The notes under the pieces are model-generated. The model was given only the letters and a program-made list of their open reading frames with translations. It had not been told where the DNA came from and did not search any database. This document shows positions 9,825 through 55,345 of a DNA stretch of 64,000 bases, piece after piece. Source of the stretch: Escherichia coli (GTDB lineage: Bacteria; Pseudomonadota; Gammaproteobacteria; Enterobacterales; Enterobacteriaceae); assembly GCF_024502345.1 (NCBI RefSeq), contig NZ_JALDNN010000001.1, one strand, 5' to 3'. The stretch's first letter is position 1. Each line of letters opens with the position of its first letter. Both the position numbers and the translations under genes were made by a program.

Positions 9825-9860
9825 AGCAAAAAAGCGCCTTTAGGGCGCTTTTTTACATTG
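9825..9860 (-). terminator. Distal copy of the lysT-operon terminator
   Basis: Hairpin aaaaaagcgccctaaaggcgctttttt (minus-strand sense); second copy of a ~55 bp direct repeat. Confidence 0.6.
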
Positions 9861-9978
9861 GTGGGTCGTGCAGGATGACTCGCTTCGCTCGCCCTTCGGG
9901 CCGTCGCCGCGAGCGGCTCCGTTGTTTCGCTGCGCTCAACTCAAACCTGCTGCAGGTTCGAATCTTTGAGTATCGCAG

Positions 9979-10012
9979 ATAGCAAAAAAGCGCCTTTAGG
10001 GCGCTTTTTTAC
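9979..10012 (-). terminator. Rho-independent terminator immediately after lysQ
   Basis: Same GC hairpin plus T-tract directly 3' of the last tRNA. Confidence 0.75.
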
Positions 10013-10014
10013 AT

Positions 10015-10090
10015 TGGTGGGTCGTGCAGGATTCGAACCTGCGACCAATTGATTAAAAGTCAACTGCTCTACCAACTGAGCTAACGACCC
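10015..10090 (-). tRNA. lysQ: tRNA-Lys (anticodon UUU)
   Basis: 76 nt; reverse complement reads GGGTCGTTAGCTCAGTTGGTAGAGCAGTTGACTTTTAATCAATTGGTCGCAGGTTCGAATCCTGCACGACCCACCA. Confidence 0.95.
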
Positions 10091-10123
10091 CTTGCGGGAT
10101 TATGCTGCTTTAATCATTCAGGA

Positions 10124-10199
10124 TGGTGGGTCGTGCAGGATTCGAACCTGCGACCAATTGATTAAAAGTCAACTGCTCTACCAACTGAGCTAACGACCC
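10124..10199 (-). tRNA. lysZ: tRNA-Lys (UUU)
   Basis: Identical 76 nt tRNA-Lys copy. Confidence 0.95.
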
Positions 10200-10247
10200 A
10201 TACGGGTGTTACCTGAAAGATTTTTACTCGGGGCCAATCTTTAAGAT

Positions 10248-10323
10248 TGGTGGGTCGTGCAGGATTCGAACCTGCGACCAATTGATTAAAAGTCAACTGC
10301 TCTACCAACTGAGCTAACGACCC
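10248..10323 (-). tRNA. lysY: tRNA-Lys (UUU)
   Basis: Identical 76 nt tRNA-Lys copy. Confidence 0.95.
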
Positions 10324-10326
10324 GAG

Positions 10327-10402
10327 TGGTGGGTGATGACGGGATCGAACCGCCGACCCCCTCCTTGTAAGGGAGGTGCTCTCCCAGCTGAGCTAATCAC
10401 CC
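10327..10402 (-). tRNA. valZ: tRNA-Val (UAC)
   Basis: 76 nt; reverse complement reads GGGTGATTAGCTCAGCTGGGAGAGCACCTCCCTTACAAGGAGGGGGTCGGCGGTTCGATCCCGTCATCACCCACCA. Confidence 0.95.
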
Positions 10403-10453
10403 GATACTGCGCTAGATACTACAAACTACTTCCACCGAACCCACCGTAATTAG

Positions 10454-10529
10454 TGGTGGGTCGTGCAGGATTCGAACCTGCGACCAATTGATTAAAAGTC
10501 AACTGCTCTACCAACTGAGCTAACGACCC
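10454..10529 (-). tRNA. lysW: tRNA-Lys (UUU)
   Basis: Identical 76 nt tRNA-Lys copy. Confidence 0.95.
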
Positions 10530-10531
10530 GG

Positions 10532-10607
10532 TGGTGGGTGATGACGGGATCGAACCGCCGACCCCCTCCTTGTAAGGGAGGTGCTCTCCCAGCTGAGCTA
10601 ATCACCC
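10532..10607 (-). tRNA. valT: tRNA-Val (UAC)
   Basis: Identical 76 nt tRNA-Val copy. Confidence 0.95.
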
Positions 10608-10742
10608 GATACTACGCTGGATACTACAACTAACTATGTTAGTGGTGGGTCGTGCAGGATGACTCGACTTCGTCTCGCCCTTCGGGCCGTTGCTGATGCA
10701 ACGTTATCCTTCACGTTTTACTACCGCTTCCACCTTAGCGAT

Positions 10743-10818
10743 TGGTGGGTCGTGCAGGATTCGAACCTGCGACCAATTGATTAAAAGTCAACTGCTCTAC
10801 CAACTGAGCTAACGACCC
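10743..10818 (-). tRNA. lysT: tRNA-Lys (UUU)
   Basis: Identical 76 nt tRNA-Lys copy; first gene of the operon. Confidence 0.95.
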
Positions 10819-10982: not shown

Positions 10983-11774
10983 TTACATCGCGTTCAGACG
11001 TTTTTGTGCCTGTTTAGCGCCATCAGTACCAGGGTATTTACTGATAACCTGCTGGTATACGGCTTTCGCTTTTGCGGTGTCACCTTTGTCCTGCATGATG
11101 ACGCCGACTTTAAACATCGCATCTGCAGCCTTTGGTGACTTCGGATAGTTTTTCACTACCGAAGCAAAATAGTACGCCGCATCATCTTTTTTACCCTTGT
11201 TGTAGTTTAACTGACCCAGCCAATAATTGGCGTTTGGCAGGTAAGTTGAATCAGGGTAATTTTTGATGAAATTCTGAAATGCCACCATTGCGTCATCCTG
11301 GCGGGATTTATCCTGCACCAGCGCAATAGCTGCATTGTAATCCGTGTTTGCATCACCGCTTTTCACCGGCGCGCCAGCATTCGCAGTACCAGCATCAGCT
11401 GTCGGCGTCGTTGATGCCGCCGCACCGCTTTGATCGACGCTGGTTGATTGCGCCGCTGCACCACCGCTGCTGAGGCTATCGATCTGCAACAGGATCTGCT
11501 TTTGCCGCTCCACGACCTGATTCAGTTGATACTGATTTTCCTGAATCTGACCACGCAGGGAATCAATATCGGATTGATTATCAGAGAGTTGTTGCTGGAG
11601 TTGGGTTAAAAGCTGGCTGTGAGCATTAGAAATACGCTCAAGTTGAGTGACGCGGTCTTCGACCGAGCCTGAGCCGACACTACTGATTGGTGCCTGAGCA
11701 AAAGCGGCCCAGGGGGCCGCTATACCAACCAGTAACGACAGACTCAATAGTTGATGTCTGAAGTTACTGCTCAT
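10983..11774 (-). CDS. cpoB: Cell division coordinator CpoB (TPR protein, Tol-Pal associated)
   Basis: 263 aa; signal peptide, coiled-coil region, TPR repeats; downstream of pal. Confidence 0.9.
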   Translation of the reverse strand: MSSNFRHQLLSLSLLVGIAAPWAAFAQAPISSVGSGSVEDRVTQLERISNAHSQLLTQLQQQLSDNQSDIDSLRGQIQENQYQLNQVVERQKQILLQIDSLSSGGAAAQSTSVDQSGAAASTTPTADAGTANAGAPVKSGDANTDYNAAIALVQDKSRQDDAMVAFQNFIKNYPDSTYLPNANYWLGQLNYNKGKKDDAAYYFASVVKNYPKSPKAADAMFKVGVIMQDKGDTAKAKAVYQQVISKYPGTDGAKQAQKRLNAM

Positions 11775-11783
11775 GCAATTCTC

Positions 11784-12329
<546 letters not shown>

Positions 12330-18345: not shown

Positions 18346-19914
18346 TTAGCGTGCCGGCTGAGTAGTCGTGGAAGACTGCTCAAAGTGATAGCGACCGGTT
18401 TTCAGGCTGCTTGGGCCGAGGCGTGCAAACTTGAACATTAAGAACAATTCTGCCACCAGGAACAGGGTATACAGGCCGCAAATCAGCACCATTGAGAAGA
18501 TGAGATCGCCTGCGGTCAGTGACGAGTTCGCCACAGCTGTCGGCAGCACTTCACCGATAGCCCACGGTTGGCGGCCATATTCAGCCACGAACCAGCCCGC
18601 TTCTACAGCAATCCACGGCAGCGGAATACCGTACAGCGCGGCGCGCAGCAGCCATTTTTTCTCGCCAATGCGGTTGCGGATGACACTCCAGAAAGAGAGC
18701 GCGATGATTGCCAGCAGCAGGAAGCCACACGCCACCATGATACGGAACGCGAAGTACAGCGGCGCTACACGCGGAATGGAGTCTTTGGTTGCCTGTTGAA
18801 TCTGCGCTTCAGTCGCATCAGCCACGTTTGGCGTATAGCGTTTCAGCAGCAGACCGTAACCGAGGTCTTTCTTCATGCTATTGAACTGGTCACGAACTGC
18901 CTGGTCGGTAGAACCAGAACGCAGTTGCTCGAGCAGAGAGTACGCCTTCATCCCGTTACGAATGCGTTCTTCATGCTGCACCATCAGTTCTTTCAGGCCG
19001 ATAACTGGAGTATCCACGGAACGCGTTGCAATGATGCCCAGCGCGTAAGGGATCTGGATCGCAAATTTGTTCGTCTCCTCTTCCTGATCAGGAATGCCGA
19101 ACAGAGTAAAGGCAGCAGGCGCAGGTTGCGTTTCCCACTCGGCTTCAATAGCAGCCAGTTTGGTTTTCTGCACGTCGCCCATTTCGTAACCAGATTCATC
19201 ACCCAGAACAATAACAGACAGAACGGCAGCCATACCGAAGCTGGCAGCGATAGCAAAGGAGCGTTTAGCGAAGGCGAAGTCACGACCTTTCAGCATATAC
19301 CATGCGCTGATACCGAGGATGAACATCGCGCCAGTCACATAACCAGACGCTACAGTGTGAACGAATTTCACCTGAGCAACCGGGTTAAGCACCAGCTCGG
19401 AGAAGCTCACCATCTCCATACGCATAGTTTCAAAGTTGAAATCGGACGCGATTGGGTTTTGCATCCAGCCGTTCGCAACCAGAATCCACAGTGCGGACAG
19501 GTTTGAACCGAGCGCCACCAGCCAGGTGACACACATATGCTGAACTTTACCCAGACGATCCCAACCGAAGAAGAACAGACCTACAAAGGTGGATTCGAGG
19601 AAGAAGGCCATCAGACCTTCGATTGCCAGCGGCGCACCGAAGATATCCCCTACATAGTGGGAATAGTAAGACCAGTTAGTCCCGAACTGGAACTCCATGG
19701 TCAGACCGGTAGCCACACCCAGAGCGAAGTTGATACCAAACAACTTGCCCCAGAACTTGGTCATATCTTTATAAATCTGTTTGCCGGAAAGGACGTAGAC
19801 CGTTTCCATAATGGCCAGCAGGAACGCCATACCGAGCGTCAGTGGCACAAAAAGGAAGTGGTACATCGCGGTCAAGGCAAACTGTAAGCGCGACAGTTCG
19901 ACTATATCTAACAT
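18346..19914 (-). CDS. cydA: Cytochrome bd-I ubiquinol oxidase subunit I
   Basis: 522 aa from [12 protein letters not shown]; ORF-track start is one codon upstream. Confidence 0.93.
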
Positions 19915-20251
19915 CATGACTCCTTGCTCATCGCATGAAGACTCCGAGAGTGAACCCCGTTAGAAAGGGTCACACGCATGCCCCAATACAAAATTATTTG
20001 CTCGCCTCTATCGTTGCCATTTCATCAAAAGAGGAAAAGACAATGATAAAAAAGTTACAAATATGTTAATGAATAAACCAAATTGATCCCGTAATTATAT
20101 TACGCCGCAAAATCCTTACAATAAACAGGTTTTTATTGAGCAAATTTGCATTTTTCGACAGTGATCAATTTATAGCGAAATTGTCACGATCTCACCAATT
20201 TGATCTACGACAATTTATCGTGTTTTGCAGATTTTTTTCAAGAATTAAAAA

Positions 20252-20265
20252 TTGATTTATATCAA
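20252..20265. promoter_or_regulatory. FNR-type palindrome in the long AT-rich cydA upstream region
   Basis: Perfect TTGAT-N4-ATCAA (ttgatttatatcaa) about 340 bp upstream of the cydA start codon. Confidence 0.5.
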
Positions 20266-20719
20266 AACCAACCAAATATGTTAATTATGTATAAACCATA
20301 GATCATTGGTGATTTTATTGTTAATTTATTGTGAAATATTTATGCAACACAATTATTACAATGAAAAGGTATAGATAAAAAACCAGTGTTTTATTTAACA
20401 GAACCGCCCAATCAACTTTTTATAATACCAATTGATTAGAGTAGCCAATTTGTTGCTATTTTACATAACATATTTTTATCAAAGTTAATTGATTGTTGCC
20501 TTTATGAGCACCGACCGTAAGCCCGTTATGTTATTGTTTCATTAGTAATAATCACTTAAATGTATCGATGAAACAGGTATGACTTACCGGGAGTGATTGT
20601 TTCTGAGTGAACAGAGGCCACTTTCGCCTGATAAATGAAAAATGAGCGATTTTTGCAAGTTAGTTTTTCTATAGCCGAGTACGCTCAGCGCCTCGCTTGA
20701 TTACAATGAGGTTGCTGCT

Positions 20720-21664
20720 ATGAGTCCTGATAATATCGGTTCGGCTGTCAATCGCTTCTCAGGTTGGCCATCTAATGATCCTCTAAAAACAGATGAAGAA
20801 TCAATGAAATCACCCGTGACTGTGCAAGTAATAAAGATGATTGCCGCCATCCTTGACCCACATCGGATAGTCGTTGGAATTGATACACTTTATACAACGC
20901 AGCGCGAAACATTTACCTCAGAGAGTCAACAGCTCATTGAATCAGCATTGCAAACACTTCATGTGATGAATTTAAATAATCTGGAAACAAATCGCGATGA
21001 AGAAGGTCACTATCTGGCTTTTGAATATAACGTTGACACCTCTGACAGAATAACCGTTTCTGCTTATAATGAAAAAAAGCCTGGCTGCTATGGCCAATGT
21101 CTTTTAATACAGGATGACGAAACAGACTTATTTAACCTGATAAAAATTAAAATTTTCGAAGCCAGGCATAATTATGTCGCTCAATTGATGAGCGATCCGG
21201 AATTTATGTTCAAATTCAGTTATAGCGCTCAACAAAATAGATTAGAACCTCATCTTCTGGTTCCCGCTTATTTCCCTCTAAAAACAAACGAACCGGTTAC
21301 GCAAGAGGATGTACTGTTACTTTATCGTTTCTTTAAAATGAATGATGATTTTAATAAATTAACATCAGAGGAATACATGAGTATCATGACTCCTCTGATG
21401 AAGTGTGAGCGTAGCGTCCACGACAACAACAGGTATGTGACGGGCAAAGATACCCATCTTCTGGACTATCCTCCTTCTGGTAACCAGATACATTTCCATA
21501 TTTTTCCTGACGAATCAGCAACACTAGTCCTTTATTTTTCAAACAATGACCTTGAATGTTTCGTCTTTGAAAGAGATATTCCTAGCCAGTATCGCTTTTT
21601 CAAAATGTTTACCAATCTGGCACTGGTTATAGATCAGTTAACCGAAGCCAATAAAATACTTTAA
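20720..21664 (+). CDS. Hypothetical protein, 314 aa, low-GC, no recognisable domain
   Basis: Long ORF with GAGG RBS 9 nt upstream; GC visibly lower than flanking core genes; polar Ser/Thr/Asn-rich N-terminus; absent from the K-12 arrangement. Confidence 0.6.
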   Translation: MSPDNIGSAVNRFSGWPSNDPLKTDEESMKSPVTVQVIKMIAAILDPHRIVVGIDTLYTTQRETFTSESQQLIESALQTLHVMNLNNLETNRDEEGHYLAFEYNVDTSDRITVSAYNEKKPGCYGQCLLIQDDETDLFNLIKIKIFEARHNYVAQLMSDPEFMFKFSYSAQQNRLEPHLLVPAYFPLKTNEPVTQEDVLLLYRFFKMNDDFNKLTSEEYMSIMTPLMKCERSVHDNNRYVTGKDTHLLDYPPSGNQIHFHIFPDESATLVLYFSNNDLECFVFERDIPSQYRFFKMFTNLALVIDQLTEANKIL

Positions 21665-21744
21665 TTTTCTATATATCCCTATGGCAAATATTGCTAAACA
21701 ATGCCTGGGGATTAATTTTTATTACTCACGGAAAGATTTAAATA

Positions 21745-22167
21745 ATGATACCATCTCAGATCTCTTTCAATACCCTTCCAGTCAATGCAACATACGCTTC
21801 AGAGACAACAGTTGACACACAAAAATTCTCTGACATCCTCTACTCAGCGGGGTGTTCCCTAAAGGATATGGCTTATCTGAGCAGATGTCTGGCATCAATA
21901 CACCCGACTCTCGCCAAAAACATTTATGAAACAGAAAATCTCAGCGATCAAAAATTACTGCATATTGATTGCCGTAGTACAAATGACATCAAGATAAATA
22001 TCTTTTTTGGTCAGCAACGAGAAGGATTAATTGAAATTAGTTCTGACACAGTTATTTTTTCGATACTGTCTTCATTGATTGACTCCGCCATTTCTAAATT
22101 TCAACATCAAAACCCCGTTAACGGTTCAGTTAATCCTGAACTATTGTATAAGGATTATACTGATTAA
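21745..22167 (+). CDS. Hypothetical protein, 140 aa, low-GC
   Basis: ORF 80 bp downstream of the 314 aa ORF, same strand and same composition; Ser/Thr/Ile-rich N-terminus. Confidence 0.5.
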   Translation: MIPSQISFNTLPVNATYASETTVDTQKFSDILYSAGCSLKDMAYLSRCLASIHPTLAKNIYETENLSDQKLLHIDCRSTNDIKINIFFGQQREGLIEISSDTVIFSILSSLIDSAISKFQHQNPVNGSVNPELLYKDYTD

Positions 22168-22714
22168 ACCCACCCAGTCGCGAAAAATGGCCTGCGTTAT
22201 TGCCAGACGTAATAAAACCGTTGATTAACGTTACTCATACTGGTAGCACCTTCATGTACCTCTCTTTTTTACGAAAAATCAAAAGAGCTAACTAAGGTCA
22301 TAATTCGCATGAATCATTAACCATTTGTTATTTTCAACATTATTTTTACATTAAGCAGAAATGAATTGCAGTGAAATTCGACTTAAATCTTATGAAATGC
22401 ATTTACTCATGGCTAAAACCACGTCACAAAAATGCAAATTAGAAGTAGATCACAATTATCTCAATACATTAAATCAAGTTAATTTTAAAAATTTAACATT
22501 CATGTCATTAGTTGACATAACACACTGAATTAACATGGAAATTTAAAAACACACTTTAAACAATCATTTCCCGAAAGACATTTTGAAAATAGATCAATTG
22601 CAACATTACGGTCAGATAAAGACACTCCTGTGATATTAAACCTGTGCCGTTATGAACGGCCATAAATACGACGTGTGTAACTTATTTTACTCTCTGTCTT
22701 ACAAAGGATTACCC

Positions 22715-23164
22715 ATGAAGAAAGCAACACTTGTGATTGGCGTTATTGGCGCGGACTGCCATGCAGTAGGCAATAAAGTTCTGGACCGCGTTTTTAGCAA
22801 CCACGACTTCAGAGTCATTAATCTGGGCGTAATGGTCAGCCAGGACGAATATATTGATGCTGCCATCGAAACTGGCGCTGACGCGATTATCGTCTCCTCT
22901 ATCTATGGGCATGGCGATATCGACTGTCTGGGCATGCGCGAACGCTGCATCGAGCGTGGACTGGGTGACATCCTCCTCTATGTGGGCGGTAACCTGGTGG
23001 TCGGAAAACATGACTTCGCTGACGTGGAAACCAAGTTCAAAGAGATGGGATTTGATCGCGTCTTTGCCCCAAGTCATGACTTAGAAGATGTTTGTCAGCT
23101 GATGGCCCACGATATCAATCAACGTCATGACGTTGATACTCGTATTCTTGAAGAGGCTATCTGA
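22715..23164 (+). CDS. glmS: Glutamate mutase (methylaspartate mutase) S subunit, B12-binding
   Basis: 149 aa from [22 protein letters not shown] (cobalamin-binding DxHxxG-type motif); RBS aagga upstream; ORF-track start at 22652 is an extension. Confidence 0.85.
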
Positions 23165-24552
23165 TGCAAATCGTCTCTGTCGATATTGGATCGACGTGGA
23201 CCAAAGCTGCCCTCTTCACCCGGGAGGGGGACGCGTTAACGTTGGTTAACCACGTACTGACCCCAACCACCACCCATCATCTGGCGAAGGGGTTTTTCTC
23301 CAGCCTGAACCAGGTGTTAAACGTAGATAATGCCCTCCCCCTGTTAAACAGCGGTGAGGTTGCATTGAAGTATTCCTCCTCTGCCAAAGGTGGGCTGGCG
23401 GTTGCCGCAATGGGATTGGTGCCTTCTATCACCCTGGAAACCGCGAAAGTAACCGCTCACTCTGCGGGGGCTAAAATTGCGCAATATTACGCCTACAAGC
23501 TGAACCGCCGTGATATCCAGGCACTGGAAGAAACGCAGCCCGATATTCTCTTGTTCACCGGCGGCACCGACGGCGGAGAAGAAAGCTACGGACTGAATAA
23601 CGCCCGTGTGCTGGCAGAATCCAAACTCGACTGCGCCATTATTTATGCCGGAAACCGGGATATTCAGGACGAGGTGCAGGAGATCCTCGGGCATAAAGAC
23701 CTGACCATCGTCGACAATGTTCTGCCCGATCTTGACCATCCGAACCCTTTAGCCGCACGCCAGGCTATTTGCGACATATTCCTTAAACGCATCGTTAAAG
23801 GGAAAGGGCTGGATGTCATTGTTGATAAAACAGGCGAAGAACCAATGCCGACACCATGGACGGTCTTTGAACTGGTCAAGGCAATCAGTAACGTCGATCA
23901 CAGCTGGAAAGAGTTCATGCTGATCGACATGGGCGGCGCAACCACCGATGTTTATTCCGCCGGTGCCAACACGCTCTCGCCCGACACCGTTTTACACGGC
24001 GTACCGGAACCCTTCGTAAAACGGACGGTGGAAGGCGATCTGGGAATGCGCGTCTCGGCAGTGGTGGTTGGTGAAAGTGCGAAAGAGTTAGTCAATGTGA
24101 ATTTTGCTCAGCAACCCGCACAGCTGGACGCTTTTTATCATTACCTCCGTCATCTAGTCGCTCATCCCGACTACTTACCCGCAAATGCAGAAGAGAAATA
24201 TTTCGATACCGTCCTGGCCGGACTGTGTGTGGGTTATGCCACCGAAAGACATGCGGGCACCAAAAAAGAGGTCTGCACCTGCGTCGGCAATGTCGATTTA
24301 CAGATGGGACGTGACCTGACAACCGTGCGTAAAGTCGTCGGATCCGGCGGATGGCTCTCGCGTGCCAGTCAGTTCGATATGCATCACTGGTTGAAATACC
24401 GCGAGTTAAACGACGACGGTAAACGCATTCTCTTACCGACCGAATTTGAATATTACCGCGATTCCCGGGGGCTATTACCACTGCTGGCAAACGTCGCCAG
24501 AGTCGATCCGCTGGCCGCCGCGCGCACCAGTATTCAATGCTTAACCCTATAA
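23164..24552 (+). CDS. glmL: Glutamate mutase-associated protein GlmL (MutL-like)
   Basis: 462 aa; start overlaps the glmS stop (ATGA); sits between the S and E subunits as in clostridial glutamate mutase operons. Confidence 0.8.
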   Translation: MQIVSVDIGSTWTKAALFTREGDALTLVNHVLTPTTTHHLAKGFFSSLNQVLNVDNALPLLNSGEVALKYSSSAKGGLAVAAMGLVPSITLETAKVTAHSAGAKIAQYYAYKLNRRDIQALEETQPDILLFTGGTDGGEESYGLNNARVLAESKLDCAIIYAGNRDIQDEVQEILGHKDLTIVDNVLPDLDHPNPLAARQAICDIFLKRIVKGKGLDVIVDKTGEEPMPTPWTVFELVKAISNVDHSWKEFMLIDMGGATTDVYSAGANTLSPDTVLHGVPEPFVKRTVEGDLGMRVSAVVVGESAKELVNVNFAQQPAQLDAFYHYLRHLVAHPDYLPANAEEKYFDTVLAGLCVGYATERHAGTKKEVCTCVGNVDLQMGRDLTTVRKVVGSGGWLSRASQFDMHHWLKYRELNDDGKRILLPTEFEYYRDSRGLLPLLANVARVDPLAAARTSIQCLTL

Positions 24553-24570
24553 CAATTAAGGCTGCAATCA

Positions 24571-26016
24571 ATGGAACTTCGAAATAAGAAATTAACCCAT
24601 GACGAATTCATGACCGAGCGGCAACAGGTACTGAAAACCTGGGAAACCGGCAAGGATGTTGAAAACTTTGAAGATGGCGTTAAATACCAACAAAACATTC
24701 CTGAGCATAAACGCTTCTCTCATGCCCTGCTGAAAGCAGACAAGGAAGGTAAAACCCTTAGCCAACCGCGCGCAGGTGTGGCGCTGATGGACGAACACAT
24801 CGAACTGCTGAAAACACTACAAGAAGAGTGCGATCTGCTGCCAAGCACCATCGATGCATATACCCGTCTGAATCGGTACGAAGAAGCGGCTGTAGGGATT
24901 AAAAAATCCATCGAAGCCGGAACCTCTAAACTGAACGGTTTACCGGTAGTTAACCATGGTGTCGCAGCTTGCCGTCGCCTCACCGAAACCCTGCAAAAAC
25001 CGCTACAGATCCGCCACGGCACGCCAGATGCGCGTCTGCTGGCTGAAATCTCAATGGCCAGCGGCTTTACCAGTTATGAAGGCGGTGGCATTTCCTACAA
25101 CATTCCGTATGCCAAACGTGTAACGCTGGAAAAATCGATCCGCGACTGGCAGTACTGCGACCGTTTAATGGGGATGTACGAAGAACACGGGATCCGCATC
25201 AACCGCGAACCGTTTGGCCCACTAACGGGTACGCTGATCCCGCCGTTTATCTCGCACTCTATCGCGATAATCGAAGGCTTGCTGGCGCTGGAACAGGGTG
25301 TGAAATCTATCACCGTTGGTTATGGCCAGGTCGGCAGCCTGACGCAGGATGTTGCGGCGATCCAGTCTCTGCGTGAACTTGCACACGAATACTTTCAGAG
25401 CTATGGCTATACCGACTATGAATTAAGTACCGTGTTTCACCAGTGGATGGGCGGCTTTCCGGAAGACGAATCGAAAGCGTTCGCTATTATCTCCTGGGGC
25501 GCAGCCGTCGCGGGGATGTCTGGTGCCACCAAACTCATCACCAAAAGTCCGCACGAAGCCTGGGGCATTCCGACTGCCGCTGCCAACATTCAGGGGCTGA
25601 AAGCCTCCCGCCAGATGCTCAACATGGTCAATGAGCAGAAATTCCCGCCGTGCCCTGCGGTTGAACTGGAAATTGAACTGATTAAGAGCGAGGTTCGCGC
25701 AGTACTGAATAAAGTGTTCGAACTGGGTAATGGTGATATTGCGCGCGGAACGGTGCTGGCATTTGAAGCGGGCGTACTGGATGTGCCGTTTGCGCCAGCC
25801 GCCTGCAACGCGGGCAAAATTCTTCCGGTCCGTGACAACACCGGCGCGATACGCGTACTGGAAGCCGGAGCCGTTCCATTGCCAAAAGATATTCTCGACC
25901 TCCACCACGATTACGTTGCGGAACGCGCACGCTGTGAAGGACGCCAACCGACATTCCAGATGGTTGTAGATGACATCAATGCTGTATCCCACAGTAAATT
26001 AATAGGAAGACCATAA
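24571..26016 (+). CDS. glmE: Glutamate mutase (methylaspartate mutase) E subunit
   Basis: 481 aa, typical E-subunit size and operon position. Confidence 0.85.
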   Translation: MELRNKKLTHDEFMTERQQVLKTWETGKDVENFEDGVKYQQNIPEHKRFSHALLKADKEGKTLSQPRAGVALMDEHIELLKTLQEECDLLPSTIDAYTRLNRYEEAAVGIKKSIEAGTSKLNGLPVVNHGVAACRRLTETLQKPLQIRHGTPDARLLAEISMASGFTSYEGGGISYNIPYAKRVTLEKSIRDWQYCDRLMGMYEEHGIRINREPFGPLTGTLIPPFISHSIAIIEGLLALEQGVKSITVGYGQVGSLTQDVAAIQSLRELAHEYFQSYGYTDYELSTVFHQWMGGFPEDESKAFAIISWGAAVAGMSGATKLITKSPHEAWGIPTAAANIQGLKASRQMLNMVNEQKFPPCPAVELEIELIKSEVRAVLNKVFELGNGDIARGTVLAFEAGVLDVPFAPAACNAGKILPVRDNTGAIRVLEAGAVPLPKDILDLHHDYVAERARCEGRQPTFQMVVDDINAVSHSKLIGRP

Positions 26017-27257
26017 TGAAAATAAAACAGGCCCTGTTCACCGCTGGCTATTCCTCATTCTATTTCGATGACCAGCAGGCGATAAAAAACGGAGCGGGTC
26101 ATGACGGCTTTTTTTATACCGGGGAGCCGGTAACACAGGGGTTTAACGCCGTTCGTCAGGCCGGGGAGTGCGTATCGGTACAGTTGATTCTGGAAAACGG
26201 CGCGGTCGCCGTAGGTGACTGTACTGCCGTACAGTATTCCGGGGCAGGCGGTCGCGATCCACTGTTCCTCGCAGAGCACTTTATTCCGTTCCTCAACGAC
26301 CATATCAAGCCATTACTGGTAGGCCGCGATGTGGATGCTTTCCTGCCGAATGCCCGTTTCTTCGACAAATTGCGTATTGACGGCAACTTGCTGCATACCG
26401 CCGTGCGCTACGGATTATCACAGGCGCTGCTTGATGCTACCGCGCTGGCAACCGGCCGTCTGAAAACTGAAGTGGTCTGTGATGAATGGCAGTTGCCACG
26501 CGTGGCGGAATCCATTCCATTATTTGGTCAGAGCGGCGACGATCGATATATCGCCGTCGATAAGATGATCCTTAAAGGCATCGACGTGCTGCCCCATGCG
26601 CTGATTAATAACGTCGAAGAGAAGCTGGGCTTTAAAGGTGAAAAACTGCGCGAATATGTCCACTGGCTGTCGGATCGCATTCTGAGCAAGCGCACCAGCG
26701 CACGCTACCACCCAACCCTGCACATCGATGTATACGGCACTATCGGTCTGATCTTCGATATGGATCCGCTTCGCTGTGCGCAATACATCGCCAGCCTGGA
26801 AAAAGAAGCGCAAGGCCTGCCGCTCTACATCGAAGGGCCGGTCGATGCCGGTAACAAGCCCGATCAAATTCGCCTGCTGACCGCGATTACCAAAGAGCTG
26901 ACGCGCCTCGGTTCCGGCGTGAAAATTGTGGCCGATGAATGGTGTAACACCTACCAGGATATTGTTGATTTCACTGATGCTGCCAGTTGTCACATGGTGC
27001 AAATCAAAACCCCGGATCTGGGCAGTATTCACAACATCGTCGATGCGGTTCTTTACTGCAACAGCCACAGCATGGAAGCGTACCAGGGCGGCACCTGCAA
27101 TGAAACTGATGTCAGTGCCCGCACCTGTGTCCACGTCGCCCTTGCCGCTCGCCCTATGCGTATGCTGGTAAAACCAGGGATGGGCTTTGACGAAGGCCTC
27201 GATATCGTCTTCAACGAAATGAATCGTACTATCGCGCTGTTGCAGGCTAAGGATTAA
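26016..27257 (+). CDS. mal: 3-Methylaspartate ammonia-lyase (methylaspartase)
   Basis: 413 aa; N-terminus (FYFDDQ.AIK.GAGHDGF.YTG ... AVQYSGAGGRDPLFLA) closely resembles clostridial methylaspartase (enolase superfamily). Confidence 0.9.
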   Translation: MKIKQALFTAGYSSFYFDDQQAIKNGAGHDGFFYTGEPVTQGFNAVRQAGECVSVQLILENGAVAVGDCTAVQYSGAGGRDPLFLAEHFIPFLNDHIKPLLVGRDVDAFLPNARFFDKLRIDGNLLHTAVRYGLSQALLDATALATGRLKTEVVCDEWQLPRVAESIPLFGQSGDDRYIAVDKMILKGIDVLPHALINNVEEKLGFKGEKLREYVHWLSDRILSKRTSARYHPTLHIDVYGTIGLIFDMDPLRCAQYIASLEKEAQGLPLYIEGPVDAGNKPDQIRLLTAITKELTRLGSGVKIVADEWCNTYQDIVDFTDAASCHMVQIKTPDLGSIHNIVDAVLYCNSHSMEAYQGGTCNETDVSARTCVHVALAARPMRMLVKPGMGFDEGLDIVFNEMNRTIALLQAKD

Positions 27258-27260
27258 CAA

Positions 27261-28631
27261 ATGGCTCGTTCTTTTAAAGTCTTATCGCCAACGGCAATCC
27301 TCGGGTATGGATTCCCGGAAGAGAGCTTCCGCAAAGCGATGGCAGAATCGCCCGATCTGATCGCCGTTGATGCAGGCTCTTCCGATCCAGGCCCCCACTA
27401 CCTCGGGGCAGGCAAACCGTTTACCGATCGCGCAGGGGTCAAGCGCGATCTGCGCTATATGATCACCGCAGGCGTGCAAAATAATATACCGGTGGTGATC
27501 GGAACGGCTGGCGGTTCTGGTGCCGCACCACACCTGGAGTGGTGCCGAGAAATAATTCATGAGATTGCCCGGGAAGAGCACCTCTCGTTCTCGATGGCGC
27601 TGATCCCGGCAGACGTTGACAAAGCCATCGTCCACCAGGCGCTGGATAACGGCAAAATCACGGCGCTGGAGTTTGTCCCGCCGTTAACCCACGACGCGAT
27701 TGACGAAAGTACGTATATCGTCGCGCAAATGGGCATCGAACCCTTCCAGCGTGCGCTAAAAGAAGGCGCGCAAGTGGTGCTGGGTGGGCGCGCTTACGAC
27801 CCGGCCTGCTTTGCTGCGCTACCGATCATGCAAGGCTTTGATGAAGGTCTGGCGCTGCATTGTGGGAAAATCCTTGAGTGCGCAGCAATCGCCGCAACGC
27901 CCGGCTCAGGCTCTGACTGTGCGATGGGCATCATTGATGACAACGGCTTTACGCTGAAGACATTTAATCCGAAGCGTAAATTTACCGAAACGTCAGCAGC
28001 TGCACACACACTGTATGAGAAATCCGATCCTTACTTCCTGCCAGGACCTGGCGGCGTGTTGAATCTGAAAGGCTGCACATTTAAAGCGGTCAATAACGGC
28101 GAAGTGTACGTCAGCGGTTCTAAGCATGAAGAAACGCCGTATGCCCTGAAACTGGAAGGTGCACGACGGGTGGGCTTCCGCTGTCTGACCATCGCCGGAA
28201 CGCGCGACCCGATTATGATCGCCGGGATCGATAAAATCATCGATGAAGTCAAAACCAGCGTTTCGCGTAACCTGTCGCTCGACGATGACAGCATTCGCAT
28301 CAATTTCCACCTGTACGGCAAAAACGGGGTGATGGGAGACCATGAACCGATGCAAACTGCCGGGCATGAGCTGGGGATTGTCCTTGATGTAGTTGCACCG
28401 ACCCAGGAAATTGCCAACAGCGTTTGCTCGCTGGTGCGCTCTACCATGCTGCACTACGGCTATGAAAACCGCATCGCTACCGCAGGCAATCTGGCGTTCC
28501 CGTTCTCCCCTTCTGATATCCAGGGCGGGCCGGTATACGAATTTTCCATATATCACCTGATTGAAGCCAACGACGCTCTGCGTTTTGATTTCCATATTGA
28601 ACAGGTGACGCCAGAAGGAGTTCAGGCATGA
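27261..28631 (+). CDS. Uncharacterised conserved protein (tentatively AtuA-like/DUF1446 type), translationally coupled to mal
   Basis: 456 aa ORF starting 3 nt after the mal stop; normal GC; family assignment is from memory and needs an HMM search. Confidence 0.7.
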   Translation: MARSFKVLSPTAILGYGFPEESFRKAMAESPDLIAVDAGSSDPGPHYLGAGKPFTDRAGVKRDLRYMITAGVQNNIPVVIGTAGGSGAAPHLEWCREIIHEIAREEHLSFSMALIPADVDKAIVHQALDNGKITALEFVPPLTHDAIDESTYIVAQMGIEPFQRALKEGAQVVLGGRAYDPACFAALPIMQGFDEGLALHCGKILECAAIAATPGSGSDCAMGIIDDNGFTLKTFNPKRKFTETSAAAHTLYEKSDPYFLPGPGGVLNLKGCTFKAVNNGEVYVSGSKHEETPYALKLEGARRVGFRCLTIAGTRDPIMIAGIDKIIDEVKTSVSRNLSLDDDSIRINFHLYGKNGVMGDHEPMQTAGHELGIVLDVVAPTQEIANSVCSLVRSTMLHYGYENRIATAGNLAFPFSPSDIQGGPVYEFSIYHLIEANDALRFDFHIEQVTPEGVQA

Positions 28632-28945
28632 AACAGTCAATTGTCTCACTGGCGCAAGTCATTCGTTCGAAAAATGCCGGACCTTACGAACTGGTTTTAG
28701 ATATTTTATTTAAAACGAAAGAAAACTATGAGCGAGTTAAATCATCAGGGCAATTAACCCCAGAACTGATTGCGCGCTTATATCATGTTGAACCTGACTT
28801 TATTCATCGTATTGTCTGGTTTGATCCTTCTAACGCAGTAAAAATCGTCATGCCACGAGATATTATCTCCGGGAATGTAGGTGACAATGATGTCTATGGT
28901 GCACAGCAACATGCACCTTTATTAAATATGAGTTTCGATTTGTAA
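28628..28945 (+). CDS. Small uncharacterised protein (tentatively DUF4387 type), overlaps upstream gene by 4 nt
   Basis: 105 aa ORF with ATGA overlap to the 456 aa ORF; last gene of the operon. Confidence 0.6.
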   Translation: MKQSIVSLAQVIRSKNAGPYELVLDILFKTKENYERVKSSGQLTPELIARLYHVEPDFIHRIVWFDPSNAVKIVMPRDIISGNVGDNDVYGAQQHAPLLNMSFDL

Positions 28946-29084
28946 AAATCCGAATACTTTTAGCCAACTGACATCCCGTCACTTATTACAGTTCAACACT
29001 TCAGCTATTTGTAAGGTTGTAATAGCAGGTAGATGCCTGAATCTCTATTCAGGCATCTACTTCTCCTGATTCTGATTTATCGCC

Positions 29085-29378
29085 GTGCACCTGATGGAGG
29101 AAAAAATGAAGAAAATAAGTTTAACCACGATGATTCTTTTGGCGCTGGTACTTGGAATGATTATCGGCGTAGTGCTCAATAACACTGTTTCACCGGAAAC
29201 AGCAAAACTCTATGCGCAAGAAATATCGATATTCACGACGATTTTCTTACGACTGATAAAAATGATTATCGCTCCGTTAGTGGTCTCTACCCTGGTGGTA
29301 GGTATTGCTAAAATGGGAGATGCCAAAGCCCTTGGTCGTATTTTTTCTAAAACACTCTTTTTATTTATTTGCGCCTCA
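29085..29378 (+). pseudogene. 5' fragment (about 98 codons) of a GltP/DctA-family dicarboxylate/amino-acid:cation symporter, truncated by IS1
   Basis: N-terminus [23 protein letters not shown]...[30 protein letters not shown] matches the conserved first TM segments of GltP-type symporters; frame runs into the IS1 left end and stops at 29405. Confidence 0.8.
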
Positions 29379-29433
29379 GGTGATGCTGCCAACTTACTGA
29401 TTTAGTGTATGATGGTGTTTTTGAGGTGCTCCA

Positions 29434-29709
29434 GTGGCTTCTGTTTCTATCAGCTGTCCCTCCTGTTCAGCTACTGACGGGGTGGTGCGTAACGGCAAAA
29501 GCACCGCCGGACATCAGCGCTATCTCTGCTCTCACTGCCGTAAAACATGGCAACTGCAGTTCACTTACACCGCTTCTCAACCCGGTACGCACCAGAAAAT
29601 CATTGATATGGCCATGAATGGCGTTGGATGCCGGGCAACCGCCCGCATTATGGGCGTTGGCCTCAACACGATTTTCCGCCATTTAAAAAACTCAGGCCGC
29701 AGTCGGTAA
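29434..29709 (+). CDS. insA: IS1 InsA protein
   Basis: 91 aa [43 protein letters not shown]... Confidence 0.95.
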
Positions 29710-30131
29710 CCTCGCGCATACAGCCGGGCAGTGACGTCATCGTCTGCGCGGAAATGGACGAACAGTGGGGATACGTCGGGGCTAAATCGCGCCAGCGCTG
29801 GCTGTTTTACGCGTATGACAGGCTCCGGAAGACGGTTGTTGCGCACGTATTCGGTGAACGCACTATGGCGACGCTGGGGCGTCTTATGAGCCTGCTGTCA
29901 CCCTTTGACGTGGTGATATGGATGACGGATGGCTGGCCGCTGTATGAATCCCGCCTGAAGGGAAAGCTGCACGTAATCAGCAAGCGATATACGCAGCGAA
30001 TTGAGCGGCATAACCTGAATCTGAGGCAGCACCTGGCACGGCTGGGACGGAAGTCGCTGTCGTTCTCAAAATCGGTGGAGCTGCATGACAAAGTCATCGG
30101 GCATTATCTGAACATAAAACACTATCAATAA
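29628..30131 (+). CDS. insB: IS1 InsB reading frame (expressed as InsAB' transposase by -1 frameshift)
   Basis: 167 aa ORF in the -1 frame overlapping the insA 3' end; classic IS1 organisation. Confidence 0.9.
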
Positions 30132-30146
30132 GTTGGAGTCATTACC

Positions 30147-30555
30147 AATCGCCGTTATTAGCTAAAGAATGAATATTAACAATAATATCGGGATGTAACT
30201 TTGTGAATTCATGTAAATTTGGGATTAACCAGTGGGTACTAAAAGTAGGATTAACGGCAAGTTCAATAACCTGAACCGTAGGCTGCCAGGTCATAATGGT
30301 ATTGGTATCGCGTTCCAGCTTATTTAATGTTTCTTTTACTATCCCCAGGTAATACTTCCCTGCATCATTAAGAAAAATGCGTTTTTTAGAGTGTGAAAAT
30401 AACGGAGTACGTAAAAATTCCTCCAGCGCACTTACTTGTCTGAATACTGCACTTTGGGTTAACGCTAACTCCTCTGCCGCTCTGGTATAACTTTCATGAC
30501 GTGCGACGACCTCAAAAGTCACCAGCAGTTCCGTTTTAGGTATTTTCCCTCGCAT
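30147..30555 (-). pseudogene. 5' fragment (about 136 codons) of a LysR-family transcriptional regulator, truncated by IS1
   Basis: N-terminal HTH typical of LysR (TFEVVARHESYTRAAEELALTQSAVFRQVSALEEFL); reading frame runs into the IS1 right end. Confidence 0.8.
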
Positions 30556-31107
30556 AATGCCGTCCCTTAAAAATAGTTTAAACCATCAAAAATACATTAC
30601 TTATTACGAAGTAATGGTAACAAAGCAGCAATAAATAATTTATAAGAATCATGATTGACATTTATAAACCAGTAAGGCTGGCGTGACAAATATCTTAATC
30701 AGATAATAATAATCCGAAAAGCACAGCGCCTTTCGAATTATCCGGAATCACATTAAGTGAAAATTATTAAATTGATATCATTTATCATATCTGTGGATAT
30801 TATGATAAACAATCAACAAAGATTTTATTTTTGATTTATAGCATATCCATCTAAGAATTTTTGCGATGCTGCAATATCCGGGGTAAAGACCCGATCCTGG
30901 CTGACAAATGGCACGACTTGACGAAAAGCGGTGAACATCGCTTTTGTTGATTTACTTAACGCTACGGTCAAACGCTGGGAAGCCAGTGCATCAGGTAACG
31001 ATTCGAAATTCGCCGTCGTTCTTATTCGTGGCTTGCGGTCGGTCGCGGCAATCCACAGTGGCTGTGGTCATGCAGTCAAGCCTGCAGTCAGATTTCGACC
31101 GTGGTTA

Positions 31108-31140
31108 ACCGTTTAAGGTATAAAAAAGGCCATCATACGA
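31108..31140 (-). terminator. Rho-independent terminator downstream of sucD
   Basis: Minus-strand hairpin ggccatcgtatgatggcc followed by TTTTTTAT. Confidence 0.65.
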
Positions 31141-31220
31141 TGGCCAACCATGTCGAAACCGACAGCCCTTCGCCATTCCTGTAGAGGGAAGCGGCGAGGG
31201 CTATTTCTTATTACAGATAT
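31110..31220 (-). ncRNA. sdhX: Possible SdhX (RybD) sRNA from the sucD 3' UTR
   Basis: About 100 nt between the sucD stop and the terminator, the position where the 3'-UTR-derived sRNA lies in K-12; sequence identity not verified. Confidence 0.4.
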
Positions 31221-32090
31221 TTATTTCAGAACAGTTTTCAGTGCTTCACCGATATCCGCCAGGCTGCGAACGGTTTTCACGCCTGCGGCTTCCAGAGCAG
31301 CGAATTTCTCATCCGCAGTCCCTTTCCCACCGGCAATGATGGCACCCGCGTGGCCCATACGTTTGCCTTTCGGCGCAGTCACACCAGCGATGTAACCCAC
31401 AACTGGCTTGGTAACGTGCTCTTTGATGTACGCAGCTGCTTCTTCTTCAGCGCTACCGCCGATCTCACCGATCATCACGATCGCTTCGGTCTGCGGATCT
31501 TTTTCGAACATTTCGAGAATGTCGATAAAGTTAGAGCCAGGGATCGGGTCACCGCCGATACCGACACAGGTCGACTGACCGAAACCGTAATCCGTGGTCT
31601 GTTTAACCGCTTCATAGGTCAGTGTACCGGAACGGGAAACGATACCCACTTTACCCGGTTTGTGAATGTGACCCGGCTGGATACCGATTTTGCATTCACC
31701 CGGAGTGATAACGCCCGGGCAGTTCGGGCCGATCATACGAACGCCGGCTTCGTCCAGTTTCACTTTCACAGTCAGCATATCCAGCGTCGGGATGCCTTCA
31801 GTGATGGTGATAATCAGTTTGATGCCTGCATCAATAGCTTCCAGAATGGAGTCTTTGCAGAACGGTGCTGGTACGTAGATAACAGAAGCGGTAGCGCCAG
31901 TAGCAGCAACAGCTTCACGCACGGTGTTGAACACCGGCAGGCCGAGGTGGGTAGTACCGCCTTTACCTGGGGTTACGCCGCCAACCATTTTAGTGCCGTA
32001 TGCAATGGCCTGTTCTGAGTGGAAAGTCCCCTGGCTACCAGTAAAGCCCTGGCAGATAACCTTGGTGTTTTTATCAATTAAAATGGACAT
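31221..32090 (-). CDS. sucD: Succinyl-CoA synthetase alpha subunit
   Basis: 289 aa. Confidence 0.95.
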
Positions 32091-33256
32091 TATTTCCCCT
32101 CCACTGCGGCAACAACCTGCTGAGCTGCATCCGTCAGACCTTTTGCTGCAATAATATTCAGGCCGCTGTCAGCCAGTTTCTTCGCGCCGAGTTCGGCGTT
32201 GTTACCTTCCAGACGTACCACGACCGGTACGTTAACACCCACTTCTGCTACCGCGCCGATGATACCGTCAGCGATCAGGTCGCAACGAACGATACCGCCG
32301 AAGATGTTAACCAGAACGGCTTTCACTTTGTCGTCAGAGAGGATGATTTTGAACGCTTCGGTTACACGTTCTTTGGTTGCGCCGCCGCCAACGTCAAGGA
32401 AGTTAGCCGGTTCGCCGCCGTGCAGTTTAACGATGTCCATCGTACCCATCGCCAGACCTGCGCCGTTAACCATACAACCGATGTTACCGTCCAGCGCAAC
32501 GTAGTTCAGTTCCCACTGTGCAGCCTGTGCTTCACGCGGATCTTCCTGCGACTGGTCACGCATTTCGCGCAGATCAGGCTGGCGGAACAGTGCGTTGCCA
32601 TCAGCGCCCAGTTTGCCGTCGAGGCAAATCAGATCGCCCTGTTTGGTAATGACCAGCGGGTTGATTTCGATCAGCGCCAGGTCACGCTCCAGGAAAATGG
32701 TCGCCAGGCCCATGAAGATTTTGGTGAACTGCTGAACCAGTTTACCTTCCAGACCCAGTTTGAACGCCAGCTCGCGTCCCTGATACGGCATCGGGCCAGT
32801 CAGCGGATCAAGCGCAACTTTGTGGATCAGGTGCGGAGTTTCTTCCGCCACTTTTTCGATTTCCACGCCGCCTTCGGTAGAGGCCATAAAGACCACGCGA
32901 CGTGAACTACGGTCTACAACGGCACCGAGATACAGCTCTTTAGCGATATCGGTCGCCGCTTCAACCAGAATCTGGTTAACCGGTTGGCCATTGGCATCTG
33001 TTTGATACGTTACCAGACGCTTGCCCAGCCAGTTTTCTGCAAAAGCACGGATGTCTTCTTTACTGTTTACAACTTTCACACCGCCCGCTTTACCGCGGCC
33101 ACCAGCGTGAACCTGACATTTCACTACCCACGGACCGGCACCGATTTTTGAAGCGGCTTCTTCTGCTTCGCGCGGAGTAGTACAGGCATAACCCACCGGT
33201 GCTGGTAAGCCATAGCGGGCAAAAAGTTGTTTTGCCTGATATTCATGTAAGTTCAT
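32090..33256 (-). CDS. sucC: Succinyl-CoA synthetase beta subunit
   Basis: 388 aa ([16 protein letters not shown]...); stop overlaps the sucD start. Confidence 0.95.
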
Positions 33257-33329: not shown

Positions 33330-33525
33330 TGTCGGTCACCCGTAGGCCTGATAAGACGTGTAAGCGTCGCATCTGGCATCGCTTGTCGGATGCGGCGCGA
33401 GCGCCTTATCCGACCTACATCGGTGCTTCCCGTAGGCCTGATAAGACGCGTTAAGCGTCGCATCAGGCTTCAATTGCCGGAGAAGGCGATAATGTCTTAT
33501 CCGGTCTACAGTGCAGGTGAAACTT
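33330..33525. repeat. BIME/REP cluster in the sucB-sucC intergenic region
   Basis: Repeated gcctgataagacg...cgcatc palindromic units. Confidence 0.6.
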
Positions 33526-37739: not shown

Positions 37740-37865
37740 GTTACGCCTGATGCGCTGCGCTTATCAGGCCTACGGGTAATGACTTGTAGGCCGGATAAGG
37801 CGTTCACGCCGCATCCGGCACTGGTTGCCTGATGCGACGCTTGCGCGTCTTATCAGGCCTACGGT
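37740..37865. repeat. REP elements in the sdhB-sucA intergenic region
   Basis: gcctgatgcgctgcgcttatcaggcctac and repeated copies. Confidence 0.6.
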
Positions 37866-55209: not shown

Positions 55210-55345
55210 AGCACCGATGCCTGATGCGACGCTTGACGCGTCTTATCAGGCCTACGCATTTCCTGCAATTTATTGAATTTGCACAAATTTGTAGGCTGGA
55301 TAAGGCGTTCACGCCGCATCCGGCATCTGGGCTCGATTGCCTGAC
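55210..55345. repeat. REP elements between dtpD and phrB
   Basis: gcctgatgcgacgcttgacgcgtcttatcaggcctac and a second copy. Confidence 0.6.

Follow-up and report, generated by a model that had tools for sequence, protein, structure and literature searches.

The window analysed here is a stretch of 64,000 nucleotides of Escherichia coli DNA, composed of E. coli-type sequence in reversed orientation relative to K-12. It contains the distal end of the TCA-cycle operon, with the ORFs of sucC, sucB (odhB), and sucA located upstream of sucD on the same strand. The product of sucD is 100% identical to K-12 SucD over 289 aa, and the gene carries the label sucD in matching genomes. On the minus strand, the sequence 3′ of the sucD stop codon reads AUAUCUGUAAUAAGAAAUAGCCCUCGCCGCUUCCCUCUACAGGAAUGGCGAAGGGCUGUCGGUUUCGACAUGGUUGGCCAUCGUAUGAUGGCCUUUUUUAU. 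By its sequence, this stretch can be assigned with high confidence to sdhX, the gene segment for the Hfq-dependent, 3′-UTR-derived small RNA (sRNA) SdhX, formerly named RybD. The K-12 MG1655 annotation places the ncRNA sdhX (b4764) at 765050..765150, beginning at the first base after sucD. Positions 31220..31122 of the window, which begin at the edge of the stop codon and close with the final U of the U6 tract, match the first 99 nt of K-12 sdhX at 99 of 99 bases. The first difference is found at sdhX position 100, just past the U-tract, which is A in the window and G in K-12; the two bases following the tract are thus AU in the window and GU in K-12.

These observations agree with the original prediction that a sucD 3′ UTR of about 100 nt ends in a strong terminator and may correspond to SdhX. 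The alignment with K-12 proposed there as a check reveals no divergence in the seed, as UUCGACAUGGU and its core CGACAU are intact. The predicted span (31110–31220) covers the right region and is about 10 nt too long at the 3′ side, and the strand of the sRNA, which had been left unstated, is minus. The Rfam search suggested as a second check returned no SdhX match in the sdhX interval with Rfam 15, either at the gathering threshold or at E<=10. The sole match overlapping sdhX is a sub-threshold, terminator-like isrD hit (17.3 bits vs a gathering score of 37), and tmRNA and RsaOG appear as further sub-threshold noise. Because the sequence is identical to the characterised K-12 SdhX, the silence of Rfam most likely reflects a library without an SdhX model, not the absence of the RNA. 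The features of the locus are listed in Table 1.

Table 1 Features at the sdhX locus and in the adjoining accessory segment (coordinates refer to the window).
Feature	Position	Strand	Basis or remark
sdhX (SdhX/RybD)	31120..31220	-	101 nt; identity to K-12 b4764, genome survey, variability
sucD, succinyl-CoA synthetase alpha subunit	31221..32090	-	ORF; parental mRNA of the sRNA; terminal gene of sdhCDAB-sucABCD
SdhX 5′ hairpin (sRNA positions 19-57)	31164..31202	-	MFE and centroid folds; genus-variable part
SdhX seed UUCGACAUGGU (core CGACAU)	31147..31157	-	single-stranded; directly 5′ of the terminator
Rho-independent terminator hairpin GGCCAUC-GUAU-GAUGGCC	31128..31145	-	terminator scan
U6 tract	31122..31127	-	transcript 3′ end and expected Hfq-binding tail; final bases shared with K-12
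Accessory segment replacing K-12 mngR-mngA-mngB	~20291..31121	.	blastn vs K-12 and PapM-32-1; Pfam; tblastn
Convergent rtcB-family remnant, degraded, ~100 bp	31022..31121	+	first element of the segment; blastx, DNA matches
LysR-family regulator, cut at residue 137/301 by IS1	30142..30555	-	Pfam, tblastn
IS1, 768 bp	29379..30146	+	insA 29434..29709, insB 29628..30131
Dicarboxylate symporter, N-terminal stub	29085..29405		Pfam, tblastn
DUF4387 protein	28628..28945		Pfam, tblastn
AtuA-family protein	27261..28631		Pfam, tblastn
Methylaspartate ammonia-lyase	26016..27257		Pfam, tblastn
GlmE	24571..26016		Pfam, tblastn
GlmL/MutL	23164..24552		Pfam, tblastn
GlmS	22652..23164		Pfam, tblastn
Hypothetical ORF, 140 aa	21745..22167	+	between cydA and glmS
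Hypothetical ORF, 314 aa	20720..21664	+	between cydA and glmS

Elsewhere in the window, Rfam matches of the naRNA4 (REP/BIME-type) family are located in the sucB-sucC intergenic region (33345..33415, minus strand) and in the sdhB-sucA intergenic region (37789..37859, plus strand). The sucB-sucC spacer measures about 93 nt in UPEC129 and AVS0744 vs about 275 nt, so the first naRNA4 element is variably present. In addition, the CpoB/ybgF thermometer (11745..11883, minus strand) and ES036 (55248..55290) are matched at the gathering score. Seven tRNA matches with RtT elements lie at 9859..10818 on the minus strand, where the annotated UPEC129 counterpart is a Lys/Val tRNA cluster. The thermometer, tRNA/RtT, and ES036 matches fit the K-12 tol-pal / lysT neighbourhood.

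SdhX is predicted to fold into a 5′ hairpin, a single-stranded seed, and a terminator hairpin. The full 101-nt sequence has a folding energy of −41.3 kcal/mol (z = −4.67), a stability reached by none of 200 shuffled sequences. The terminator scan identifies a stem of 7 bp, five of them G-C pairs, closed by a 4-nt loop and followed by T6, and this hairpin by itself contributes a folding energy of −11.5 kcal/mol. The seed, whose experimental definition comes from Miyakoshi et al. 2019 (PMC6393394), is unpaired in both the MFE and the centroid folds except for a weak local helix of 4 bp. It can pair over about 10 bp with CCAUGUCGAG of K-12 ackA, spanning the AUG and including the second codon; this complementarity refers to the K-12 gene only, the strain's own ackA, fdoG, and katG being located outside the window. 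The GG|UUU context of sRNA positions 61-65 is compatible with a cleavage by RNase E that would give rise to the form of about 38 nt.

The sdhX locus is nearly universal in the species and is found beyond it. A 161-nt query comprising the end of sucD and the UTR was matched in 5425 of the 5426 complete E. coli genomes. A scan with the exact 19-nt seed pattern retrieved the locus in E. albertii, E. whittamii, Escherichia sp. E1V33, an Escherichia-like MAG, E. coli strain E69, and Citrobacter amalonaticus, together with three unrelated chance matches. When 10 Escherichia sequences are compared, 7 of the 99 sdhX columns vary, vs 110 of 290 at the third codon positions of sucD (Fisher p = 4.6e-10). 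Within the 3′ 45 nt, which hold the seed and the terminator, a single column varies (1/45), and it belongs to the terminator loop. The seed is invariant in the eight aligned Escherichia sequences, and the terminator keeps all seven of its pairs unchanged in the Escherichia alignment, with variation confined to the loop. The 5′ hairpin has 14 pairs, with 99% of cells paired across the eight sequences. It shows one compensatory change (C-G to U-A, in E. albertii), which is not significant (reached by 66 of 500 shuffles); covariation is nearly absent because the Escherichia sequences hardly vary. Judged from these alignments, the non-coding sdhX stretch is under purifying selection.

The identity, position, structure, and conservation of the sRNA, its complementarity to ackA, and the breakpoint described below come from our own analysis. 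Processing, Hfq binding, and target repression have been established in K-12 and Salmonella (PMC6393394; PMC9438474). In those studies SdhX binds Hfq, its seed represses ackA translation, and E. coli SdhX additionally represses fdoG and katG (PMC6393394; PMC9438474). Since the window copy equals the K-12 RNA base for base, the K-12 mechanism is expected to operate in this strain as well. SdhX would have no promoter of its own and would form the final 101 nt of the roughly 10-kb sdhCDAB-sucABCD transcript, ending at the hairpin and U6; a search of the minus strand upstream of the UTR (within 31150..31500) gave no sigma-70-like site. RNase E would then release SdhX in forms of about 101 nt and about 38 nt. 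The single-stranded seed would pair over the start codon of the ackA mRNA and block translation of acetate kinase. In this way, expression of the TCA-cycle operon would be coupled to acetate / acetyl-phosphate metabolism. The account of processing, Hfq binding, and repression is thus drawn from the literature or from inference, as is the reason given below for the border position.

In comparison with K-12 SdhX (b4764), the window copy shares the position after sucD, the length of 101 nt, the seed, the E. coli-specific 5′ part, and the terminator. Apart from the base after the U6 tract, the difference lies in the downstream neighbour, which is the convergent mngR in K-12, whereas the window has the rtcB remnant and a glutamate-mutase cluster. 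Salmonella SdhX, described as the 87-nt SdhX1 and the 38-nt SdhX2 (PMC6393394), resembles it in the locus, the CGACAU motif, the terminator with its U-tail, and the primary target ackA. The 5′ part of the Salmonella RNA is different and lacks the katG-pairing region, while the window has the E. coli version. More generally, CpxQ, SroC, NarS, and GlnZ (PMC9438474) are likewise mRNA 3′ ends cut by RNase E, in which the parental terminator serves as the Hfq module and the seed is located just upstream of the terminator. They derive from other parental operons and use other seeds, and SdhX belongs to none of these families.

Downstream of sdhX, the 5.9-kb mngR-mngA-mngB region of K-12 is exchanged for about 10.8 kb of accessory DNA. 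Its limit at the cydA side is approximate, as weak K-12 similarity fades across ~20290..20340. The first element is the rtcB remnant, of which blastx recovers fragments corresponding to aa 451-462 and 375-398 of the 465-aa RtcB of strain E200086, and its DNA matches the full-length rtcB loci L003 (16138..17535) and L007. PapM-32-1 carries the same remnant allele as the window. Escherichia sp. E1V33 has a shorter remnant (aa 375-401) with related flanking DNA, and flanks of the rtcB type are seen in three other Escherichia-like genomes. The LysR-family regulator follows 565 nt downstream of sdhX in the direction of sucD.

The genes for GlmS, GlmL/MutL, GlmE, and methylaspartate ammonia-lyase are co-located at 22652..27257, and Pfam assigns B12-binding, MutL, Met_asp_mut_E, MAAL_N, and MAAL_C domains to their ORFs. 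The proteins of this glutamate-mutase cluster are 98.7-99.5% identical to those of PapM-32-1. The arrangement is that of the known glutamate mutase / methylaspartate ammonia-lyase / FumD cluster of O157:H7 (Kronen & Berg 2015, PMC4682846), sharing the order glmS, glmL (mutL), glmE, mal and, again in the same order, the genes of the AtuA-family protein, the DUF4387 protein, and the LysR-type regulator. In addition, the 975 bp adjoining sdhX are 99.5-99.6% identical to O157:H7 and O55:H7. The two hypothetical ORFs of 314 and 140 aa have no Pfam match. E. albertii, which is without the rest of the cluster, has a homologue of the 314-aa ORF beside cydA that is degraded, broken into two parts, and 54-68% identical.

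Where the O157:H7 cluster (PMC4682846) is complete, the window has an IS1 element in place of about 3.9 kb, with the result that cobO, fumD, and the bulk of the gltP-like symporter are missing and the regulator has lost its 3′ half. The element is 99% identical to the IS1A copies in L003, encodes ORFs of 91 and 167 aa, and is bounded by GGTGATGCTGCC... and ...GGAGTCATTACC, so that the terminal inverted repeats are present. A target-site duplication of about 9 bp is absent at the IS1 ends (flanking 9-mers tgcgcctca vs aatcgccgt), as would be seen if IS1 had caused an adjacent deletion or if two IS1 copies had recombined. A tblastn search of the window gave no match to the class I fumarase/mesaconase FumD (fumarate hydratase) or to CobO; with fumD lost to IS1, the mesaconate-to-citramalate route is therefore missing. 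The IS1/LysR junction occurs in 0 of the 5426 complete E. coli RefSeq genomes. The exact truncated regulator of 137 aa is present in 18 public contigs, most of them short and ending at IS1; GCA_050022275.1 and gut metagenomes are among their sources.

The adjoining DNA varies widely among E. coli strains. Among the 5426 complete genomes, mngR DNA was detected in 3884, the window-type flank (rtcB remnant plus LysR regulator) in 1127, of which 979 are full length, and a TPR-protein region in 1113; these counts sum to more than 5426 because the modules combine. AVS0744, for instance, carries mngRAB followed by the TPR gene. The 2022H047 genome has the order mngRAB, full rtcB, hut cluster, HAL/PAL lyase, and glutamate-mutase cluster; mngRAB is located between sdhX and an rtcB whose last codon differs, so that it ends K-G-* instead of K-A-*. 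The sucD-cydA interval is thus a modular, stackable variable region, and the accessory block represents a module replacement, not an insertion into the sRNA.

Similarity to K-12 ends at 31122/31121, with zero bases shared past the U-tract. In the blastn comparison, 32770..31122 is collinear with sucC-sucD-sdhX of K-12, and the next match is 20290..18872, upstream of cydA. The accessory segment therefore begins directly downstream of the sRNA as originally suggested, and the distance given there as a few tens of bp shrinks to 0-2 nt from the sRNA 3′ end. When the window, K-12, PapM-32-1, E200086, and UPEC129 are aligned, all flanks diverge right after the U-tract. The same holds for the six genomes retrieved with the seed pattern, of which five are Escherichia-type and one is C. 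amalonaticus. The breakpoint is thereby common to flanks with mngR, the rtcB remnant, full rtcB, and two TPR-protein variants, and to those of E. albertii and C. amalonaticus. The genes beyond it leave little room. In K-12, the convergent mngR has its stop codon 5 nt past the U-tract, and its CDS ends 2 nt past the annotated sdhX. In E200086, the convergent 465-aa RtcB-family CDS is annotated with a TAA stop that reaches into the U-tract and takes in its final two T's.

We infer that the border position is best explained by the absence of a spacer, with convergent genes abutting the terminator: the border falls at the U-tract because no dispensable DNA separates the terminator from the next module. 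Most likely, modules in the sucD-cydA interval would be reshuffled by deletions and by homologous exchange via the conserved flanks, and purifying selection would preserve everything through the last U. A breakpoint at one and the same nucleotide in all alleles might also be expected if the sdhX terminator were an att-like site for site-specific integration, comparable to tRNA/tmRNA 3′ ends, into which a recombinase had inserted the accessory segment. An 18-nt inverted near-copy of the seed and left terminator arm at 20762..20779 (plus strand, 2 mismatches), near the far end of the segment, could be cited for such an event, as only 0.04 copies are expected by chance in shuffles. However, this near-copy is located within the CDS of the 314-aa hypothetical ORF, has neither a hairpin nor a U-tract, and is inverted instead of direct. 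L002 and L003 retain it within conserved coding sequence, and the E. albertii locus L006 lacks it; we therefore rejected it as the mark of a mobile element, and it is probably a chance resemblance. Pfam, tblastn, and repeat searches of the segment gave no gene for an integrase or recombinase and neither a target duplication nor an att-like direct repeat, and the terminator is not repeated directly at the segment's other end. Apart from the 18-nt near-copy, the search for direct and inverted repeats at the segment ends yielded only short families at chance level. Moreover, the cydA-side limits vary by allele (20290 vs K-12, 20555 vs UPEC129), as does the order in which modules are stacked, and spacerless convergent genes suffice for a shared breakpoint. 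Insertion by a recombinase at the terminator is accordingly the least probable of the readings considered here.

A further alternative concerns the function of the stretch, which in this strain might be a mere sucD 3′ UTR and operon terminator, sdhX-like in sequence and without regulatory use, for example if the altered downstream context changes termination or processing. Such a loss could be suspected from the AU following the U-tract in place of the K-12 GU, and from the different downstream genes. But the seed, the RNase E-susceptible single-stranded region, the hairpin, and U6 are all the same as in K-12, and the RNA is retained next to five or more distinct flanks and between Escherichia species, with a variability roughly five-fold below that of synonymous sites. 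Since conservation of this kind is unexpected for a plain terminator with a free 5′ half, we consider it very improbable that the stretch has been reduced to a terminator, and retain the assignment to an SdhX sRNA that is expected to have its K-12 role.

The length of the U-tract differs with the flanking module, being U6 in K-12 and the window, U7 in E. whittamii, U8 in Escherichia sp. E1V33, and U9 in C. amalonaticus, and in E. coli E69 the tract after the SdhX hairpin is U6-G-U5. It may be speculated, with a small chance of being right, that the sdhX terminator forms the fixed hinge of a modular region whose flank is not neutral for the sRNA, either because the module sets the length of the U-tail or because convergent antisense transcription modulates SdhX. 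Without a terminator of their own before the hairpin, mngR and rtcB could be transcribed antisense across the SdhX seed. If this speculation were true, SdhX termination efficiency, Hfq binding, or abundance would vary among E. coli lineages according to the adjoining module, and the control of acetate / acetyl-phosphate metabolism would be tied to accessory-gene content.

Taken as it stands, SdhX is an already known and characterised sRNA whose sequence is unaltered in this strain. The sRNA is untouched, and therefore a regulatory consequence of the neighbouring exchange is not expected. In the inspected genomes, automated RefSeq annotation lists only sucD at this sequence, and Rfam is blind to sdhX. 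Recognition of sdhX by alignment with K-12 thus fills a routine annotation gap and has little importance beyond that. The adjacency of sdhX and an accessory block is ordinary for this variable region, and the breakpoint at 31122/31121 provides a clean left border for the variable region between sucD and cydA.
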